IMG/VR virus record: IMGVR_UViG_3300017700_000350
Coordinates: 1-31,187 of that record
From: a virus
Taxonomy: Duplodnaviria > Caudoviricetes
Direction: 5' to 3' (one strand)
DNA length: 31,187 bases
In this document: positions 11,591 to 27,545 of the stretch, piece by piece
How the letters are laid out: the number at the start of each line of letters is the position of its first letter
Numbering within the stretch: the stretch's first letter is position 1
Translations under genes and position numbers: made by a program
Notes under the pieces: generated by a model
Seen by the model: the letters and a program-made list of their open reading frames with translations, nothing else
The model's database searches: none
What the model was told of the DNA's origin: nothing

Positions 11591-12660
11591 CAGAGTTTCC
11601 CGTAATCGACCATGAGGAAGCCCGTCCAATGACGGACAACCGCGTCAATCCCTGCCTTCAGAACGTCTTGCGCCATCACGCCAACGTGGCGTTTGCGGCC
11701 CCAAACATACCGATATTCATAGACCGGCAGGCCATTTGCCATCGTGCCAACGCGCTTAATGTCGCGCTTAAGCCTGCGGTCAGAGGCACCAATCGCCGCC
11801 CCGCCAAGCGAGAACAATCCGCTCATGAGGGCTTGCTGTTGCCCCACGCGAGATTGATAGTTGGAGTTCTGCTGATTGAGGCTCATTTGGTTGGCCCCAA
11901 GCACGTCCGTCTGGCCTACGCCGGTCGGGCTGTACTGGATGCCCTGCGGCATGCCAACCGTTCCCGTGCCTAGCAGGGCTTGAAGCTGCTGAAGCGGTTG
12001 GTTCTGGACGTATGCCCGCTCTTGAAGGCCCTGCGTCCGCGCCTGATTACCGAATGTCCCACCGGCAATAGCCTGCTGAATAGCGCGAGATTGCTCCTCG
12101 CCACCGGCTTGAATGGCGCGGTTTGAGGCTTCTCCGTAAGCGTCGTTTCGGTCTCGTGCAAAATCTTGGCGAAGAGTGCGCGTCGCGTCGCTGTTTGCCC
12201 CAAGGCCCTGAGCGGCCAATCTCGCATCCTGCGAGCGTTCCATCCGATCAAACTGCGGGTCAAGGCGACGTGTCTGGCTCGCATAAACCGAATCCTCAAA
12301 CCGTTGACGGTCGAAGTCCGGGGCGTTGAACCCTTGCAGGCCGGGCAGACCGTCCGTGTTCAGGCCAGTTCCAAGCGCGTCGTTTACGCGGCCAATCTGC
12401 TGTCCAGCCGTGTCCAGCGCGCTACCATAGACCGAAGTTGAACGGTCATAGTTCTGCTGTTCGCCGGGCGACAGCGTGGTTTCTTGACGATAGCCACCGG
12501 GCTGTGTGGGGTCGGCGACATAGCGCGTCGTCCCTTGCGGGCCTGACGTTCCGACCATGTTTAGCCGCTGTTGCTCACGCGCCGTCGCGGTATTAGCCGC
12601 GCCTTGCGCGTTGGCAAGTTGGACCGGGTCAGGTGCTGCGGGAGGTTTCGGCTTGGACAT
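11590..12660 (-). CDS. ejection/pilot protein with C-terminal peptidase S74-like (intramolecular chaperone) domain
   Basis: MSKPKPPAAPDP N-terminus, Gln/Ala-rich body, SDRRLKRDI...GLPVYEYRY...GVMAQDV...VDYGKL. Confidence 0.8.
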   Translation of the reverse strand: MSKPKPPAAPDPVQLANAQGAANTATAREQQRLNMVGTSGPQGTTRYVADPTQPGGYRQETTLSPGEQQNYDRSTSVYGSALDTAGQQIGRVNDALGTGLNTDGLPGLQGFNAPDFDRQRFEDSVYASQTRRLDPQFDRMERSQDARLAAQGLGANSDATRTLRQDFARDRNDAYGEASNRAIQAGGEEQSRAIQQAIAGGTFGNQARTQGLQERAYVQNQPLQQLQALLGTGTVGMPQGIQYSPTGVGQTDVLGANQMSLNQQNSNYQSRVGQQQALMSGLFSLGGAAIGASDRRLKRDIKRVGTMANGLPVYEYRYVWGRKRHVGVMAQDVLKAGIDAVVRHWTGFLMVDYGKL

Positions 12661-13096
12661 TCACGCGGCCTTTATTGAAGCGGTGGGCTTGCCATTCGCT
12701 CTTGAGAAGGCCGGATATGATACAGTCATCATCACCGTATCCACGTCGCACAGTCCCCTCATGTTTGAACCCAAACTTGATTAGGAACTGGCGAGCCTTA
12801 CGCAGCTTCTTAGGCGTCAGGCTGGTGATCCGGTTGCATCCAAGCTGGTCGAATGCGTAGCTGAGTATGCCCGTCACTAGGTTGGGCGTCAACCAGTTCG
12901 CCCGTGTAGAGGCAAAGCTAACCTCAATGTTGCGATATTGAGGCTGATACTGGTTAAAAACCACACCGCCAATGAGGTTGTCGTGCTTATCGACCACTCC
13001 GATAGCCTCGCACGGCCCCCAATCCAATCCATGCCCAATTTGGTCCGCTACCCATTGAGCGACTAGCGGCGAGAATGGGCCAGAGACTAGCCTCAA
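12629..13096 (-). CDS. GNAT-family acetyltransferase in the virion module (P22 gp14-like position)
   Basis: YAFDQLGCNRITS...FLIKFGFKHEGTVRR RimJ/RimL-type motif; TTG start coupled to the upstream stop (TTGA). Confidence 0.8.
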   Translation of the reverse strand: MRLVSGPFSPLVAQWVADQIGHGLDWGPCEAIGVVDKHDNLIGGVVFNQYQPQYRNIEVSFASTRANWLTPNLVTGILSYAFDQLGCNRITSLTPKKLRKARQFLIKFGFKHEGTVRRGYGDDDCIISGLLKSEWQAHRFNKGRVNVQAETSRST

Positions 13097-14781
13097 AGTT
13101 GCCCGCCCGTTTGGTTTTGGTACTTCACGTTGAACGCCACAATCTCGCACGGAGCATTCGTATTACGCGCCGCTTGCGTGGCCACAACGCCGTCAGCGTC
13201 ATACGCCACCACGCCATCGTCATCATAGGCTAGATCGACATAGTTTTCGGGTTCAGGGGCGACGCGCATCCGCACCGCTCCGCAATAGCCTATGCCGGTA
13301 ACGCTAGTCCAACTGTCCCGCGTTTGTGCACTAGGCGACCACATGGCCACGTCCCACAACCCACCGTCCCATTGACCGCCCGTCACCGCAATAGTAGTCG
13401 GAACAGCCGTCGGGATGCGTTCTTTGAAGTCAGTGACAATCTCGACAGCCGGGGCAAGCGCACTAGCAATGCGAAGAACGGGTTGCAGCATTTCAAACTT
13501 TTTCAGGCTCCCGCGAGAACCGAAATAGTTAAATGCCGTCTTTATGTCGCCAACGATGCCGGTTTCATCGTCCGCATAGCCCGTGTCCCACTGATAAACC
13601 GCGTCGGACCCACCAAAGTACATTTGGTCATTAGCTACTGCCCAGCAAAACGCATTTATGCCGGTGAACTTGCACCATGCACCCGTCTGGACGTTTTGAA
13701 CGTATTGCGCCGACCGAGACAGGCTGGCAACAGGCACATTAAAGACCGCCAGCGTCCCTTTCGGGTAAAGCGTTCCCTCCCAGCCAAAGTTGTTGCGGTA
13801 GCGCGTGGTCGCCTGCTGAAAGGCGTTTTGGATGCGCTGAGTCAGAGCGACAAGGTTTTCCTGCGCGCGGTCCAGCTTCAAGGCTTGCGAAAGCGGGACA
13901 ACGCCGTCCGTCGTCAGCAAAATAAGGTCAGAACCGTACTTGATAAGCGACCGACGCGAGAGGGGCAGGCCAAGGTCATACACCCCGACCAATGCCCAAT
14001 TGTTTGCATCCGAAGGATCAAGGCCCTGATAGACCGCCACTTGGCCCTGTGTTGTGACCCAAACTGCCAAATCGTCAGCGCCCGAGCCACCGTCCAGCGT
14101 CCAAGTTGCCTGACACAGAATAGCGCCGCCCTTGTCAAAGATAGGGCCAAGGTCGAGAAGCCGCGCCGTTCCTTGGATCGCAAACGGGTCCAAAAACCAC
14201 GTTCGCAGGCTGTTTTCCTGCACAAAGAACAAGCGGCCTTTGTGATCCATCACATCGACCAGCGTAGTCGGGTCTAGCGTAATGCTTCCTGACGTTCCAG
14301 TAATTGCCGTGTCCGCAAACGCTGTGCCGTTGTAGTAAACCGGCGCAACAGACCCATTGGCGGCAATCAGGAATGTTCCCGCATCGTTGGCGAAGTTAAT
14401 CCATTGCCAGCGCGCATTGCCAGCGCCGGTATAAACCTCAACAGGCGCTTCACCGAGATTGGACACGTCAAAGATAGACCCGCCACAAGCCGCAAAAATA
14501 TCATCCGCAGTCGATGACACATGACCGCGCCAAACCATTAGCGTTTCGGTCGGGAGCGGCAGGCCAGATTGCCACGGCACATAACCCTTACGCAGTTCCA
14601 CATAGCCAGCGCGAGGGATAAAGTTGTCCAGAATGACCGCGTTTTCAGGCGGCATATCAGCCAACGGAGACTGTGCATCCCAACCGCCAACCGGGGCCGG
14701 AATAGCGCGACCGATAGAAACTCGCTGTTGAGAGACAGACCGTAGCGGCTGGCGTCCGTAGCGTTGTGCTGATTGTCTCAT
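13093..14781 (-). CDS. head-to-tail joining / packaged-DNA stabilisation protein (P22 gp10-like nozzle)
   Basis: Beta-propeller-like, ~560 aa, IPAPVGGWDA...LDNFIP...LRKG N-terminus; ATGA-coupled start; synteny after the adaptor. Confidence 0.75.
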   Translation of the reverse strand: MRQSAQRYGRQPLRSVSQQRVSIGRAIPAPVGGWDAQSPLADMPPENAVILDNFIPRAGYVELRKGYVPWQSGLPLPTETLMVWRGHVSSTADDIFAACGGSIFDVSNLGEAPVEVYTGAGNARWQWINFANDAGTFLIAANGSVAPVYYNGTAFADTAITGTSGSITLDPTTLVDVMDHKGRLFFVQENSLRTWFLDPFAIQGTARLLDLGPIFDKGGAILCQATWTLDGGSGADDLAVWVTTQGQVAVYQGLDPSDANNWALVGVYDLGLPLSRRSLIKYGSDLILLTTDGVVPLSQALKLDRAQENLVALTQRIQNAFQQATTRYRNNFGWEGTLYPKGTLAVFNVPVASLSRSAQYVQNVQTGAWCKFTGINAFCWAVANDQMYFGGSDAVYQWDTGYADDETGIVGDIKTAFNYFGSRGSLKKFEMLQPVLRIASALAPAVEIVTDFKERIPTAVPTTIAVTGGQWDGGLWDVAMWSPSAQTRDSWTSVTGIGYCGAVRMRVAPEPENYVDLAYDDDGVVAYDADGVVATQAARNTNAPCEIVAFNVKYQNQTGGQL

Positions 14782-16494: not shown

Positions 16495-17073
16495 CTATGT
16501 CCTCCGATACACAGTGTCATTTCCTATACGGGCCACGCTCTTGTAGCCGGGCAAGGTCGCTTTTGGACCCAAGCCCTTTTCTTCAAGCACGATAATAGGC
16601 GAAAACTTCTCAATTGTCGCTAGTGCGCCTTTGATTGCGTCCGCTTCCGCGCCTTCAATGTCCAGCCAGATCAGATCGCATTGATCTAGGTTCCAGTCAT
16701 CTATGGCCCATACCGGAACCGATCCGCCCGGCAGCGTCTTGTGTGAACCGCAGTTGTCCGTGTCGATGCGAAGGACGCCACAAGTCCCGACCTCAGAACC
16801 AAGAGCGGCATAGTAGGTGGTAACGTTTTCCGCCGTGACGTTGGCTACCAAGCAATCAAGGTTGTCCGTATCAGGCTCAAACGTGATGACCCGATCAAAC
16901 ACCTTGGCCAGCGCAAGGGGATAAACACCCACATTTCCGCCAGCTTGAACGCAGACGCGCTTTTCAGCCACCATCGGCAAGACGACAGGCATAGCCGCCG
17001 CGCACTCGCTAACCACCGCGTTGCGGCAGCGCACGTCAAAATCAGGCCACCAAAGGCCATCTATCTGTTTCAT
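16495..17073 (-). CDS. FkbM-family SAM-dependent methyltransferase
   Basis: VQAGGNVGVY, VITFEP, AALG, IDDWNL..CDLIWLDIEGAE..AIKGA..TI....PIIVLE; start MKQIDG by ATGA coupling. Confidence 0.9.
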   Translation of the reverse strand: MKQIDGLWWPDFDVRCRNAVVSECAAAMPVVLPMVAEKRVCVQAGGNVGVYPLALAKVFDRVITFEPDTDNLDCLVANVTAENVTTYYAALGSEVGTCGVLRIDTDNCGSHKTLPGGSVPVWAIDDWNLDQCDLIWLDIEGAEADAIKGALATIEKFSPIIVLEEKGLGPKATLPGYKSVARIGNDTVYRRT

Positions 17074-17150
17074 CGGCGCGTGTTCACAAAGATGCCGACA
17101 ATGAGAAGCCACAGCAACCAGATAGCCAAAAGCGCGCCTGCCCAAATCAT
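17070..17150 (-). CDS. 26-aa single-TM peptide (not in ORF track)
   Basis: MIWAGALLAIWLLWLLIVGIFVNTRR*; fills the gap exactly, with ATGA overlaps at both ends. Confidence 0.65.
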   Translation of the reverse strand: MIWAGALLAIWLLWLLIVGIFVNTRR

Positions 17151-18577
17151 GCCAATAGCCTTCCCATCGCCGGAATCAGCCCAGTCCCATGCGCTATAAC
17201 TTTCACGCCTCGCTCACGAAGATATAGCGCTTGCTGCTGATATTCCATTGCCTGCCTAATCATCCAGCGGGCACACAGATACCGCTTGTCGGCTAACACG
17301 ACTTCCATTGTCGGTTCACCGTCATTGAGGCTTTGCGAATAGGCGTGATGCTTGCCTTCAGCATACGAACTGTCGAAGCCGTACAGATGGATTTTCTTGT
17401 ACCCCGACAGCCATGCCAGATTGATTGCGCGAAGCCCCACAGTCCCGCCACCGGGGACTAGAACGCAAGGCCGCTGGTTAGGCCCTTCGTCAAACCACGG
17501 CTTGATAATCTCCATGAGTTCGTCACCCGAACCCATCGCGTTATGCCACAGAACAACATCATGCCCTGAAAGCGCGTCAAACACGCACGGATGAACCTGC
17601 GAGGCTAGAAAATAGCGCACACTTTTTGGCGCGTTTTCCACCATTGGCAGGTTTTCTTCCCGCGCATCCAACATGACGTGTGCGTCTGGCGTCACGCCCC
17701 GTTCCATGAGGAACCGCAGTGCGTTGTTTACGGTGATGACCTTTAGACCCCGGCGCTTGTGGTCTTTGATTGCCTTTACGCTGCCCGCAAGCGACGGACC
17801 ACCGCCAACGATGACACAGCCCTTCTCTTGCTCGCCAAAGCCTGAGAACCACGGCACGTCACGCAGAACGTTGGCCCGCACGTTCGCATAGGCAAAGTCA
17901 TGCGTTACGTTCATGCCCTTCAGTTCTGGCATGGCCGTAAACCCGCCAACCTTCCAGACACCCGGAACCCAACCGTCAGTGATAGCTTCAGGCTTAGGCT
18001 CGCCGTGGCATATGACAGCTTTAGCCGTCTCAGGAGGCCATGCAACGGCATTGCGATACGAGACGAACCATTCAGGCGGGAACGTCTCCCATGCGCTGAC
18101 TTGACTAATCCACTCTTGATCGCCGCCGTTGATCTGTCCGGCAGGGAGAAGGCCCTGAAGACTCTCCGTAGGACGGTCGATTACGTCTGATGTAAACCGG
18201 CCAAAAATGTCTCGGTGTTCGCCATGACGCCAGCGCATGACGCTGCTGTTATAGGTCGGCCAATGCCAGTCCTGAATGATGCCGTGCGGCAAACCCTCAA
18301 GACGGCCCGTAACGCATACGTCGAGGTCCATATAGAGAACCTCCGCGCCAAGAGGCCACGGCATATACGGCGCAAACAAGCCGACTTTAGCCCACCAGCC
18401 CGGCAACCATGATTCGTGCGGAATGGCCGTAATGCCTTCCGGCAGGCTGTCCGGGTCGTCCGTTAGGCACCAATGGCGCTGTTCCTCGGCCAGATGGCGG
18501 GCGATGCCGTCATGAAGGCGGGTGACGTACTCAATCGGGTATTTGGTGCCAACGCGGACACTGACGACGTTAATCAC
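17147..18577 (-). CDS. two-domain glycosyltransferase: GT-A (GT8-like) fused to Maf/DUF115-like domain
   Basis: N-half: GTKYP.EYV, GWWAK..LF, YMDLDV (DxD), NSSVM, GGDQEWI, HGEPKP. C-half: IVGGGPSL, TVNNA, PDAHVMLD, GGTVGLRAINLA..SGYKKIHLYGFDSS. GTG start after GGAGG. Confidence 0.8.
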   Translation of the reverse strand: MINVVSVRVGTKYPIEYVTRLHDGIARHLAEEQRHWCLTDDPDSLPEGITAIPHESWLPGWWAKVGLFAPYMPWPLGAEVLYMDLDVCVTGRLEGLPHGIIQDWHWPTYNSSVMRWRHGEHRDIFGRFTSDVIDRPTESLQGLLPAGQINGGDQEWISQVSAWETFPPEWFVSYRNAVAWPPETAKAVICHGEPKPEAITDGWVPGVWKVGGFTAMPELKGMNVTHDFAYANVRANVLRDVPWFSGFGEQEKGCVIVGGGPSLAGSVKAIKDHKRRGLKVITVNNALRFLMERGVTPDAHVMLDAREENLPMVENAPKSVRYFLASQVHPCVFDALSGHDVVLWHNAMGSGDELMEIIKPWFDEGPNQRPCVLVPGGGTVGLRAINLAWLSGYKKIHLYGFDSSYAEGKHHAYSQSLNDGEPTMEVVLADKRYLCARWMIRQAMEYQQQALYLRERGVKVIAHGTGLIPAMGRLLA

Positions 18578-18591
18578 GCATCCTCCAATGC

Positions 18592-18622
18592 AAAAACGGC
18601 CCCCCACAAACGCGAGAGGCCG
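18592..18622 (-). terminator. intrinsic terminator after the capsid/decoration genes
   Basis: CGGCCTCTCGC-GTTT-GTGGGGGGCCG-TTTTT on the minus strand; preceded by a second hairpin, CCTAGCCTC-CACT-GGGGTTAGG. Confidence 0.75.
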
Positions 18623-23706: not shown

Positions 23707-25026
23707 TCATGCGCGCTCATAGCCTGACTGTCGGGGCTGGTTATCCAGCAAGTCATTCCACGTCATATCACGAACGCCGCGCAAGGGCTTCTCAGCCTCT
23801 TTGACTTCCGGCTTGATCTCCCGATAGGCCATCGCAAGGTATCGGAAGGCGTCCGCAGCGTGGCTAGTCCAATCGTGCTTAGGCGCATCACGGAACACGC
23901 GGGCCTTCTCATCATAGTCCGCTCGATACTGGCGCAGGCACTCAAGCCCGGCCTTGCACTTGTCCCGGTCAAACCAGATGCGTGGGAACAGGACACGGGC
24001 AGCGTTCACCCCGTCTAGTACCTTGTGCGACGGAACCAGCTTGGGCTTGAGCTTCAGGCCCGCCATTGTCTCAATCCGCGTTCGTCCGGTGCCTAGTTCG
24101 CGCACCCTCGCATCATGCGGAACCCAATCGGCTTCATAGCGATACGGCTTGGCCTGTAAGACCTTGGCGTAATGCTCAATGCTCTCGCCGCTGGCCTCAT
24201 AGAAGTCGATCACCCGTATCTCTGGGCCATGTGCCTGCCAGAACCAGATTGCCGTGCTGTCTCCAATGCCAAGGTCCCACGTCGTATAGACGGGCAGCGC
24301 GGGATCATGCGGAACATCCGTGATACGCCCGGCTCTCTCAGCCTCAGCCATATCCTTACCGTAGTAAGCGCCGATGATTGCCGCCTCAAAGCTGCACTCA
24401 AACTCTTGCTCATACTGCTCTGGCGTCATTTCCCTAGCAGCGGCGATCAGTTCGCTTTGCGGCAAGATGCCTGTCTCAGACGCAGGCAGGAAGAACGGGA
24501 ACCAATCAGGGTCACCCTTGGCCCGCTCAAACAGGTCGAAGAAGGCATTGCGGCCTTTAGGCGTGCCGATGAACGTTGCTGTTCCCTGACGGTCTGCCAG
24601 CATGGGGCGGATGATTGAGCCGAAGATGCCGGGATACATATCCGCGTACTCGTCCAGCGTGGCGTCATCCAGATAGCCACCACGAAGGGCATCCGGGTTG
24701 TCAGCCCCATAAATCTTGATGCGCTTGCCGCCGATCAGTTCGACGTACAGTTCCGACTCATTCGGAGGCTTGGCCCAGATCGGCTGGCTGTACCGTTTCA
24801 GATATTCCCATGCCACGTCCTTAGCCTGCTTCAGATACGGCGCGAGATAGGCCGCACGATAGTTTGGCTTATCGGAGACCACCGCATTGCGTATCATGTC
24901 ATTGATGCAAGCCACCGTCTTCCCACAGCGCCTGTGAGCCACGCCGATAGCAAAGCGTTGCGTTCGGTTGTGGAACGGCAGGAACACCCGGCGAGGGGCG
25001 TAGGGGATTACTCTGGTTTCAGCCAT
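23707..25026 (-). CDS. terL: terminase large subunit
   Basis: AHRRCGKT Walker A, LRG..LD.ATLDE Walker B, FIGTPKGRN coupling motif, WDLG..D and HDWTSHAADAFRY nuclease motifs. Confidence 0.97.
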   Translation of the reverse strand: MAETRVIPYAPRRVFLPFHNRTQRFAIGVAHRRCGKTVACINDMIRNAVVSDKPNYRAAYLAPYLKQAKDVAWEYLKRYSQPIWAKPPNESELYVELIGGKRIKIYGADNPDALRGGYLDDATLDEYADMYPGIFGSIIRPMLADRQGTATFIGTPKGRNAFFDLFERAKGDPDWFPFFLPASETGILPQSELIAAAREMTPEQYEQEFECSFEAAIIGAYYGKDMAEAERAGRITDVPHDPALPVYTTWDLGIGDSTAIWFWQAHGPEIRVIDFYEASGESIEHYAKVLQAKPYRYEADWVPHDARVRELGTGRTRIETMAGLKLKPKLVPSHKVLDGVNAARVLFPRIWFDRDKCKAGLECLRQYRADYDEKARVFRDAPKHDWTSHAADAFRYLAMAYREIKPEVKEAEKPLRGVRDMTWNDLLDNQPRQSGYERA

Positions 25027-25430
25027 GTGACCGCGATAGCGCCGCCGTCAGGTCCAGATACTTCCTGTTGCAGCTTGTCGCCGTACTTCTTGGGCAGCAG
25101 TTTGGACGCAACCCACTTGCGAGCGTCAATCCGTAGCCTGTCACGGGCAACGTCAATCGCGCTAGGGTCGGCACACGACACACCATCAGCGATGGTTACG
25201 ATTTCATCAGCGTGCGTCTCGGCCTGAACTTCTCTTGCTCTCGCGTATTGTTCCCGAAACTCAGGCTTTTCGCTAACCCACCGCAAGATTGTGCCGATGG
25301 ACGGCATCCAATCATCACGATCAGAAGCACAAATAGCCCGCAACGATTCCCCGTTAGCGAGCCTTGTGCAGATTTCGTCCGCCAGTTCCGGCGTGTAGTC
25401 AGAAGGTCGGCCTAGACCGGCCATCTGCAT
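25008..25430 (-). CDS. terS: terminase small subunit
   Basis: GRPSDYTPELADEIC.RLANGESLR.IC...PS..TILRW...FREQYARARE...RIDARKW..SKL.PKKYGDK (Sf6-like). Confidence 0.93.
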   Translation of the reverse strand: MQMAGLGRPSDYTPELADEICTRLANGESLRAICASDRDDWMPSIGTILRWVSEKPEFREQYARAREVQAETHADEIVTIADGVSCADPSAIDVARDRLRIDARKWVASKLLPKKYGDKLQQEVSGPDGGAIAVTWLKPE

Positions 25431-25508
25431 CTCCGTGGTTTGCGTCTAGGCTTAAGCCGTAGCGGGGCCTTAGAGCGGGGATGATGATGCCCTAGAGGGC
25501 TTGGCGGG

Positions 25509-25796
25509 TCAAGGGTTGGCGGGTTCGCTCAGGATTGCGTCGATCATGGCGGCCCAATCCTGCGCGGCACGGTTTTTGTTCATCGTCCCCGATGCGGTCG
25601 CCAACGCCCACGCGGTTTCGTTGTCTGGCTCCCTTATAGCTTGAAGGGCAGCGCGGGCGTCGTTGATTGCGGCCTCTTGGTTGTTGGATGGCTTGTCGAT
25701 CCCTAGCCGCGCCATCCGGGCCGTCGCCGCCTCCCACGGCTCCGCTGTTTTGCGCGCGTAAAGCGCCCTTGCAGCCTTCTCCAGCATCGTAGTCAT
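25509..25796 (-). CDS. hypothetical phage protein
   Basis: MLEKAARAL...ARAALQAIREP...WAAMIDAIL pattern typical of small alphaproteobacterial phage proteins. Confidence 0.7.
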   Translation of the reverse strand: MTTMLEKAARALYARKTAEPWEAATARMARLGIDKPSNNQEAAINDARAALQAIREPDNETAWALATASGTMNKNRAAQDWAAMIDAILSEPANP

Positions 25797-25799
25797 GGC

Positions 25800-25973
25800 T
25801 TAAGCCTTTCTATCTCTCATCAAGACAAGCAGTCTTTGAACGACCAACGGAACAGGATCAGTACCAGCAGCAAACCGCCTTATTGATCTATCCGAATAGC
25901 CAATGAAGCGCCCGAACTGCGTCTGGTTGTAGCCGACGCGGACGAGGTGAGCGCGGAAGGCTTCGGGGGTCAT
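25800..25973 (-). CDS. small XRE-like HTH regulator (57 aa; not in ORF track)
   Basis: MTPEAFRAHLVRVGYNQTQFGRFIGYSDRSIRRFAAGTDPVPLVVQRLL; ATGA-coupled to the upstream ORF. Confidence 0.75.
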   Translation of the reverse strand: MTPEAFRAHLVRVGYNQTQFGRFIGYSDRSIRRFAAGTDPVPLVVQRLLVLMRDRKA

Positions 25974-26287
25974 GCGGCGAGAAACCGCTTGGGAACGGCC
26001 CGCCCGCCGTCAAACTCTGTCGGAAGCCCGGTCATCGTATTGCGCGGGCAATAGGCGTACTGGCGATCCATCTCGCCGTCGCAGTCGCTGCCCCGGCTGT
26101 AGCAAACGCCGAAGTCGAAGGCCCCGCCGCTAGCTCGGATATGGGAGGCGCACTGAACGGCCTCTGTGCGTGTTTCCCAATAGTAGCACTCCACGATCTC
26201 GTCGCCGTCCATTTCCTCGACAACCCACTCGTAGGTCGCGCGGACCTTCTCGGGATCGATTTCGACTGAAAGGTGAGGGCTGGCCAT
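25970..26287 (-). CDS. acidic hypothetical protein (105 aa), candidate anti-defence protein
   Basis: GGAGA RBS before MASPH; first gene after its own promoter; acidic and aromatic-rich. Confidence 0.7.
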   Translation of the reverse strand: MASPHLSVEIDPEKVRATYEWVVEEMDGDEIVECYYWETRTEAVQCASHIRASGGAFDFGVCYSRGSDCDGEMDRQYAYCPRNTMTGLPTEFDGGRAVPKRFLAA

Positions 26288-26327
26288 CTGTCTTCTCCAT
26301 CCGGGCAACACGCCCTTGAATGAGGAC

Positions 26328-26356
26328 AATATGGCCTAGACGTTATAGGCCGTCAA
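26328..26356 (-). promoter_or_regulatory. sigma70-like promoter with palindromic operator
   Basis: TTGACG-17 nt-CATATT; GGCCTA-N7-TAGGCC inverted repeat (26333-26351) spans the spacer. Confidence 0.75.
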
Positions 26357-26541
26357 GTCCTATTTCGCATCGCCGCCCACTGTTTCGCGAAGGCATTTGG
26401 CACAGCGTCGAACCGATCAAGATGCTGGACAACAGGCATCCCTTGGGAGTTTCTGAAGGCCAGCCATCGGTCGCGGGCTTCGCGGCTTTTCTCGCAGGAA
26501 TAGGAGCGGACAGCGTATAGGCCGTCGTGCGGGTCATTCAT
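26353..26541 (-). CDS. hypothetical protein (frame uncertain; alternative 26343..26537)
   Basis: MNDPHDGLYAVR... overlaps the ninB end; two candidate frames. Confidence 0.4.
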   Translation of the reverse strand: MNDPHDGLYAVRSYSCEKSREARDRWLAFRNSQGMPVVQHLDRFDAVPNAFAKQWAAMRNRT

Positions 26542-27308: not shown

Positions 27309-27545
27309 TTAGCCCTCCACGCTTTGCAGATACAAGTCCACAAGCGTCTGTTCTTCCTGTCGCTTGGCCTTGTCTTGCTTAATCAGCTTCAGCACCTTGC
27401 GCATGATTTTGGTGTCGTAGCCCGCACCCTTGGCCTCCGCAAAGACCTCTTTCATATCAGCGGACACGGCGGATTTGTCATCGTCCAGACGCTCAAGGCG
27501 CTCCATGAACGATTGCAGCATTCCCGAGTTTATCGCGTCAGTCAT
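27309..27545 (-). CDS. gapR: GapR/DUF2312-family DNA-binding protein
   Basis: LQSFMERLERL..DK..VS.DMKEVFAEAKG.GYDTKIMRKVL.L......R.E...L.DLY. Confidence 0.9.
   Translation of the reverse strand: MTDAINSGMLQSFMERLERLDDDKSAVSADMKEVFAEAKGAGYDTKIMRKVLKLIKQDKAKRQEEQTLVDLYLQSVEG

Follow-up and report, generated by a model that had tools for sequence, protein, structure and literature searches.

The closest described system to the locus analysed here is the acrIF1-aca1 operon of the Pseudomonas phage JBD30, in which a small cargo gene comes first and the gene of the HTH protein Aca1 (PDB 7C0G, 7FA3, 7VJM) comes last. According to the structural work on Aca1, its half-site is GGCAC, with a 3-bp spacer; R47 and R44 read the two guanines, V45 and Y48 read the adenine pair, R59 reads the last pair, and R22, Q32 and S42 make backbone contacts (PMC8633003). 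Aca1 was also reported to bind a hairpin in the 5' UTR (bioRxiv 10.64898/2026.07.27.740549). Elsewhere, only 15% of 2599 Aca-like homologues are given as lying beside known Acrs, and high acr transcription is described as disturbing downstream late genes (PMC9410906). Another point of comparison is P22 gp17 (PF17420, phrog_1510), a small counter-defence protein reported to be needed to counteract the exclusion by the Fels-2 prophage (PMC9409062).

The window, that is, the whole stretch of DNA that was analysed, is an entire virus record of 31,187 bases (completeness of the virus, 85%). On its minus strand, small genes of early type (GapR-like PF10073, SSB, NinB) come first, followed by the cassette studied here and then by terS, terL and the genes for portal, head, tail and lysis. 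As in JBD30, the cassette has its small cargo gene first and its HTH gene last, and structural genes lie downstream of the operon. We read it, with moderate confidence, as an operon of the acr-aca1 type, whose first gene can be exchanged, whose last gene is conserved and Aca1-like, and whose cargo is a candidate counter-defence protein. In support of the acr-aca-like reading, which the initial annotation of the sequence had already put forward, Aca1 was the top PDB match of the regulator family, the cargo was swapped in the closest relative, and a gene of the gp17 family occupied the same slot in another locus.

Since a GapR-like gene is present, and given the host range of GapR, the host of this virus is probably an alphaproteobacterium, unlike that of the Pseudomonas phage JBD30. 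The GapR-like DNA-binding protein gene (27309-27545, minus strand; PF10073, E 3.5e-27) lies between a recombination gene and the SSB gene. Note that the virion genes also include those of an MptE-like/glycosyltransferase protein (17147-18607, minus), an FkbM-type methyltransferase (16495-17145, minus) and a GNAT acetyltransferase (12629-13150, minus), which suggests modification of the virion or of the host surface.

The cassette, its promoter and its leader

The features of the cassette and its surroundings are given below in the order in which they are read. L015, a metagenome contig, is the closest relative of the locus, and L005 is a further locus with a related HTH gene.

26586-26353, minus: upstream 77-aa ORF, whose TGA stop lies inside the -35 hexamer
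26348..26360, no strand: predicted operator A, GGAC-TTGAC-GGCC, surrounding the -35 box, with the 13-bp geometry of the Aca1 site (PMC8633003)
26351..26356, minus: -35 hexamer TTGACG, the same in L015, holding the stop of the 77-aa ORF
26333..26351, no strand: palindrome GGCCTA-N7-TAGGCC of the initial annotation, reinterpreted as the two inner half-sites of A and B together with their flanks
26328..26333, minus: -10 hexamer CATATT, 17 nt from the -35 hexamer, the same in L015
26324..26336, no strand: predicted operator B, GGCC-ATATT-GTCC, surrounding the -10 box (GGTC-ATATT-GTCC in L015)
26303..26315, minus: leader element GGGC-GTGTT-GCCC, identical in the window, L015 and L005
26294..26298, minus: ribosome-binding site GGAGA, assigned from sequence, 6 nt before the ATG of the cargo, kept in L015 and L005
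25970..26287, minus: cargo gene for the 105-aa acidic P0001, a candidate counter-defence protein from a widespread phage family that carries no annotation and overlaps phrog_15581
25800..25973, minus: 57-aa Aca1-like HTH protein P0002, predicted autorepressor (HTH profile, Aca1 alignment)
25509..25796, minus: 95-aa ORF, 3 nt past the HTH stop, with no family match, probably co-transcribed
25484..25512, minus: second promoter-like site TTGACC-17-CATCAT, ahead of terS, a consensus match only
23707..25430, minus: terminase genes, small subunit 25430-25008 and large subunit 25026-23707 (PF20901, E 4e-42; phrog_2, E 7e-37)

The promoter that had been described as near-consensus, TTGACG-17-CATATT, is present as described, though it is a modest match taken alone (9 of 12 positions of the sigma-70 consensus). 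Because six sites of this quality were found between 22000 and 31187, against 2.8 +/- 1.6 expected, the match by itself is not significant. The two genes behind it were also correctly drawn: the 105-aa ORF is acidic (19 D/E, 10 K/R, pI 4.53), and the ORF of the 57-aa HTH protein (25973-25800) is coupled to it by an ATGA overlap. The cassette thus has the small gene followed by a small HTH gene in one operon that characterizes acr-aca systems.

The leader element was unchanged across the three unrelated cargoes of the window, L015 and L005. It may be a third operator-like site or a short RNA hairpin in the 5' UTR, and we treat it as a candidate for either. Its inverted repeat ends 15 nt before the cargo ATG, compared with a distance of about 20 nt in the RNA motif of Aca1 (bioRxiv 10.64898/2026.07.27.740549), and it shares the geometry of the operators, unlike that of JBD30. 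The leaders folded no better than their shuffles (z-scores -0.15, -0.51 and 0.76), and since the element is invariant in 3/3 leaders there is no covariation in it, so the DNA site and the RNA hairpin are indistinguishable from these data. A scan of viral sequences for the leader motif gave two matches, L005 again and one chance match, and all 12 matches in the genomes scanned were due to chance.

The regulator and its predicted operators

As a single sequence, P0002 gave weak HTH matches (Pfam HTH_31, E 0.063; phrog_14076, E 1e-4), and as a PDB query it did not retrieve Aca1 at E 10. A profile of 10 sequences of its family, compared with 177,635 PDB sequences, had Aca1 in all of its top three rows (E 2.7e-5 to 3.9e-5), followed by Aca3; the same profile also matched HigA2, P22 c2 and MqsA-type HTHs, with HigA2 and P22 c2 ranking behind Aca3. 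The hhalign comparison of this profile with JBD30 Aca1 reached a probability of 96.5% over 51 columns (P0002 residues 3-53 to Aca1 residues 18-73), and the alignment extends over the HTH and the C-terminal dimerisation helix. The HTH protein, which had been described as XRE-like, therefore has Aca1 as the best PDB match of its family profile.

P0002 is 30% identical to Aca1, from which it differs in being without the N-terminal extension and the 5-residue loop. It retains R22, Q32, S42, R44 and R47 of Aca1 (R44 and R47 being R29 and R32 of P0002), and has S30, R33 and D39 in place of V45, Y48 and R59. Because residues with which Aca1 reads its bases are partly kept and partly changed in P0002, a 13-bp site with the same GG..CC ends and altered inner bases was to be looked for. 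The GGCAC half-site was absent from the cassette promoter, and the likely operators are 13-bp GGNC-N5-GNCC sites (GGCA-N5-TGCC for Aca1), predicted over the -35 and -10 boxes with a third in the leader. The pair over the two boxes is 24 bp apart, compared with 25 bp for the pair in JBD30. P0002 is predicted to work like Aca1, yet we do not assign it to the Aca1 family.

There were 21 GGNC-N5-GNCC sites in the window, of which three cluster at the cassette and form the window's only pairs 20-28 bp apart. Two pairs with this spacing occurred in 0/300 simulated windows, a figure to be read with the pattern having been chosen after the fact; the operator motif alone showed no enrichment in the window (6 vs 4.1). 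Across the HTH group, a GG-N9-CC repeat with at least 4/5 symmetric pairs was present in 10 of 13 cassette promoter windows, compared with 3.6-15.9% of random windows. These 13 represent 12 loci and about seven lineages (five positive), with start codons picked by eye; L007, L044 and L040-L042 were left out of the count, as they have no clear first cargo gene, and the L005 window was shifted by one base. The three misses were L008, whose copy is degenerate, and L006 and L010, in which the helix has no equivalent of R44. Inverted repeats on the core promoter, kept together with the regulator, are another trait of acr-aca operons, and one that these 10 promoter windows present.

The initial annotation had taken GGCCTA-N7-TAGGCC as the operator. 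As a sequence feature the palindrome is real: it occurs once in the window (26333-26351) and in 0/100 shuffles, although the pattern was picked after seeing it, spans the promoter spacer plus one base of each hexamer, and sits within a longer inverted repeat (21-nt, 71%, 26318-26366). As an operator, it was probably mis-parsed. L015 breaks it at one base, and L005 is without it, having GGAC-AAAAA-GTCC (GGAC-N5-GTCC) in its promoter spacer instead. Moreover, a palindrome of the same shape, GCCTA-N8-TAGG, lies between the two proven Aca1 sites of JBD30, and we consequently disfavour the palindrome itself as the binding site.

Homology and conservation make it very likely that the HTH protein represses its own promoter. 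Outside the viral loci, a scan of genomes for the HTH gave no match, and its profile found three places in two of 401 sampled genomes of one class, where no cassette-type promoter was seen.

The cargo slot and the cargo family

The strongest support for the proposed reading comes from L015, a sister phage. The HTH protein of L015 is 91% identical to P0002, the upstream gene is homologous, and in the stretch from the -35 box to the ATG only 3 bases differ from the window. The interval from the start codon to the ATGA overlap is taken up in L015 by a 94-aa ORF unrelated to P0001: blastn matched the flanks and not the cargo, and the local alignment of the two cargo proteins scored 24, with a mean of 23 for shuffles. 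The gene ahead of the regulator is thus not an invariant core gene, being replaced by an unrelated one in the closest relative. In L005 the HTH protein is 40% identical to P0002, the leader is near-identical, and the cargo is a member of the P22 gp17 family (PF17420, E 1.9e-27; phrog_1510), labelled 'superinfection exclusion' in both Pfam and PHROGs. Note that gp17 is unrelated in sequence to P0001; its family, behind the same leader, informs on the contents of the slot and not on the function of P0001. Variable cargo ahead of a conserved regulator, a further acr-aca trait, is therefore seen in L015 and L005.

More distant relatives of the HTH gene (in L001, L002, L006, L008-L011, L043 and L045) also terminate runs of small unannotated genes. 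Scanning 12 cargo ORFs of this HTH group against PHROGs gave one match, the gp17 family, and no known anti-CRISPR, and PADLOC returned nothing for P0001 or eight other cargoes. In searches of Pfam, PHROGs and the PDB the cargo here matched no known Acr, unlike acrIF1 of JBD30.

P0001 had been called an orphan, a status ruled out by its 123 matches among 50%-identity representatives. We aligned 120 sequences, comprising 116 of these matches, P0001 and three closer relatives, after dropping four long repeat proteins, two long forms and one fragment. Conserved positions are Y19-E20-W21, E24, R75, A78-Y79, F92, G95 and P99. Net charge is negative in 119/120 members, with a median pI of 4.49 and a moderate median net charge of -9.5. 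Genes of the family are present in named phages of Xanthomonas, Pseudomonas and Aeromonas, where they lie among small hypothetical genes, and in MJing1; every product is annotated as a hypothetical protein, which is also the only name given in the protein collection searched. Thirty-seven of the 120 members matched phrog_15581, whose function is not assigned (best E 8.6e-13); P0001 itself gave no match to it at E 0.001, and no mention of phrog_15581 was found in the literature searched.

Neither Pfam, PHROGs, PDB sequences nor PADLOC provided a function for the cargo. NCBIfam gave none either, and also missed the AcrIF1 and Aca1 controls. The structure model of P0001, a confident one (pLDDT 94.4, pTM 0.81), has two strands, then a helix, then two more strands and a tail. 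Foldseek against the PDB had a best E of 0.44 and placed AcrIF9 12th (E 1.3, TM 0.21, not significant); VIA-align reached at best Z 4.8 among 48,161 chains, viral structure models matched only uncharacterised proteins, and scores in the ESM Atlas stayed under 0.9. The modelled protein is without a match to solved folds, and this absence of a match does not make the fold new.

Ocr, ArdA and AcrIIA4 are acidic inhibitors that mimic DNA. Like them, the members of the cargo family are small and acidic, and no match in sequence or fold was found. DNA mimicry by P0001, an idea of the initial annotation that composition would suggest, seems to us unlikely.

The cargo family and the HTH gene are often found apart. 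None of the 13 other viral loci with a cargo-family gene had this HTH nearby within the fetched flanks, and there was none in the whole record G003. The cargo profile gave no match when 401 genomes sampled from one class were searched. A strong sigma-70-like promoter lay immediately ahead of the cargo-family gene at 6/18 loci, compared with 9/201 other ORFs (p 4e-4); with the window removed and lineages merged, the count was 3/12 (p 0.02), one merged lineage being positive on 1/4 loci.

Several single loci of the cargo family deserve mention. In L004 (3830-4330), a complete 44-kb phage record without the Aca1-like HTH, the gene comes first after an S24-peptidase repressor region. In L049 (1-3279; Xanthomonas phage Rb1) it lies four genes after a 'defense against restriction A N-terminal protein' (darA-like). 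In L016 (3324-3491) and L021 (2728-2922), small basic ORFs flank the cargo-family genes and look by eye like ribbon-helix-helix regulators; they are possibly an Aca14-like alternative regulator. The ORF of L016 had no match in PHROGs.

Proposed mechanism and alternative readings

We infer the transcription of the operon and its timing as follows. On entry of the DNA, host polymerase would fire the host-type promoter, giving a burst of cargo protein, and the cargo and the coupled HTH protein would be made together. HTH dimers would then bind the GGNC-N5-GNCC sites at the -35 and -10 boxes, ending the burst, and might also bind the third site, that of the leader, either as DNA or as RNA. The acidic protein would most likely act by binding and blocking some component of a defence system of the host or of a prophage, CRISPR-Cas being one option only. 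Judged from its context, P0001 probably has counter-defence activity, and the clean swap of cargo in L015 gives guilt-by-association grounds for seeing its family as inhibitors.

Another way to read the same autorepressed early operon is that the acidic protein is a general factor for host takeover or fitness, for example one binding a host transcription or replication protein, and no inhibitor of immunity. The cargo family often supplies the first gene after a strong promoter, or lies in a group of small early genes, with no Aca-like partner present, its conserved core is aromatic and Arg-containing (Y19, W21, R75, Y79, F92, P99), and known acr genes are reported as absent beside most Aca-like genes (PMC9410906), all of which would fit such a role. 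In L005, however, the slot is occupied by a gene of a counter-exclusion family, and the clean replacement by unrelated genes is a pattern of arms-race cargo; both speak against it, and we regard this alternative as unlikely, though a real competitor.

The cassette could also be a moron expressed from a prophage, its low, repressor-set expression in the lysogen giving exclusion of, or defence against, other phages. It has its own sigma-70-type promoter, the cargo family of L005 bears the 'superinfection exclusion' label, and in MJing1 family members lie between the repressor and the integrase. Nevertheless, gp17 is described as overcoming exclusion and not as causing it (PMC9409062), PADLOC was blank for P0001 and the eight other cargoes, a family member also lies at the genome end of the Pseudomonas phage 16Q among small hypothetical genes, and the idea presupposes a temperate lifestyle, not established for this record. 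We find it improbable.

The proposal of the initial annotation that the HTH protein shields the terminase genes, with the cargo being incidental, was weighed against the downstream genes. The cassette does lie upstream of terminase, with terS downstream, but the 95-aa ORF and the second promoter-like site intervene. Between the cassette and 22000 the minus strand showed no terminator-like site, so read-through is possible, and interference of high acr transcription with downstream late genes has been reported (PMC9410906). Of 14 phage loci with this HTH, six have a terminase gene a short way downstream (the window, L001, L002, L009, L011 and L044; three by eye). On the other hand, the 2.6 kb that follow the HTH gene of L015 contain no terminase-like ORF (by eye), terS has its own promoter-like site, and the operator-like sites are in the cassette promoter, with none before terS. 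Since terminase follows in 6/14 loci but not in the closest one, shielding of terminase would be at most a side benefit, and a special role in timing or protecting the packaging genes, unsupported by these results, is very improbable. Repression may be beneficial in limiting read-through without there being any terminase-specific role. In L015 the 95-aa ORF has a short blastn match two genes further downstream. The second promoter-like site has a spacer palindrome of its own, GCCC-TCTA-GGGC, whose geometry is unlike that of the cassette sites and which is possibly a control site for late genes.

Reading the pair as a type II toxin-antitoxin module, in which the acidic protein would be the toxin, is hardly credible, despite the toxin-first, HTH-second order with translational coupling and the weak similarity of the HTH to HigA2 and MqsA, as HTH proteins 91% identical are paired with two unrelated partners, so that fixed cognate pairing fails, the cargo family is without the HTH in those 13/13 other loci and G003, and the cargo matched no toxin family.

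The acr-aca1-type layout is already known; within it, this cargo family and the operator variant appear to be new elements, and neither was found described in the literature searched (not by regulator sequence). A conserved phage family without a function (about 120 clusters at 50% identity) becomes a candidate defence inhibitor, and the HTH regulator can serve as bait for anti-defence genes beyond the Pseudomonas/Moraxella/Burkholderia range of Aca1. The locus is also a natural test of how changes in the recognition helix of Aca1 shift the operator. More tentatively, P0001 might found a widespread counter-defence family with an unsolved fold, and its Aca1-like regulator might represent a branch belonging to alphaproteobacterial phages that reads the altered operator GGNC-N5-GNCC at both promoter boxes and a further time in the leader RNA, marking further unknown inhibitors, some of them beyond CRISPR.

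About a dozen further unannotated cargo genes accompany this HTH group. In the Bradyrhizobium phage ppBeUSDA76-2 (OP596614.1; L043, 1400-1684), a 94-aa ORF missing from the deposited annotation lies behind a GGGC-N5-GCCC site and shows ATGA coupling to the gene of the HTH homologue. In L011 (2938-4192), a cassette with two operator-bearing promoters is inserted between terS and a terL-like gene, and the related L001, L002, L008 and L009 shuffle the same small genes, one of which encodes a 313-aa hexapeptide-repeat protein.
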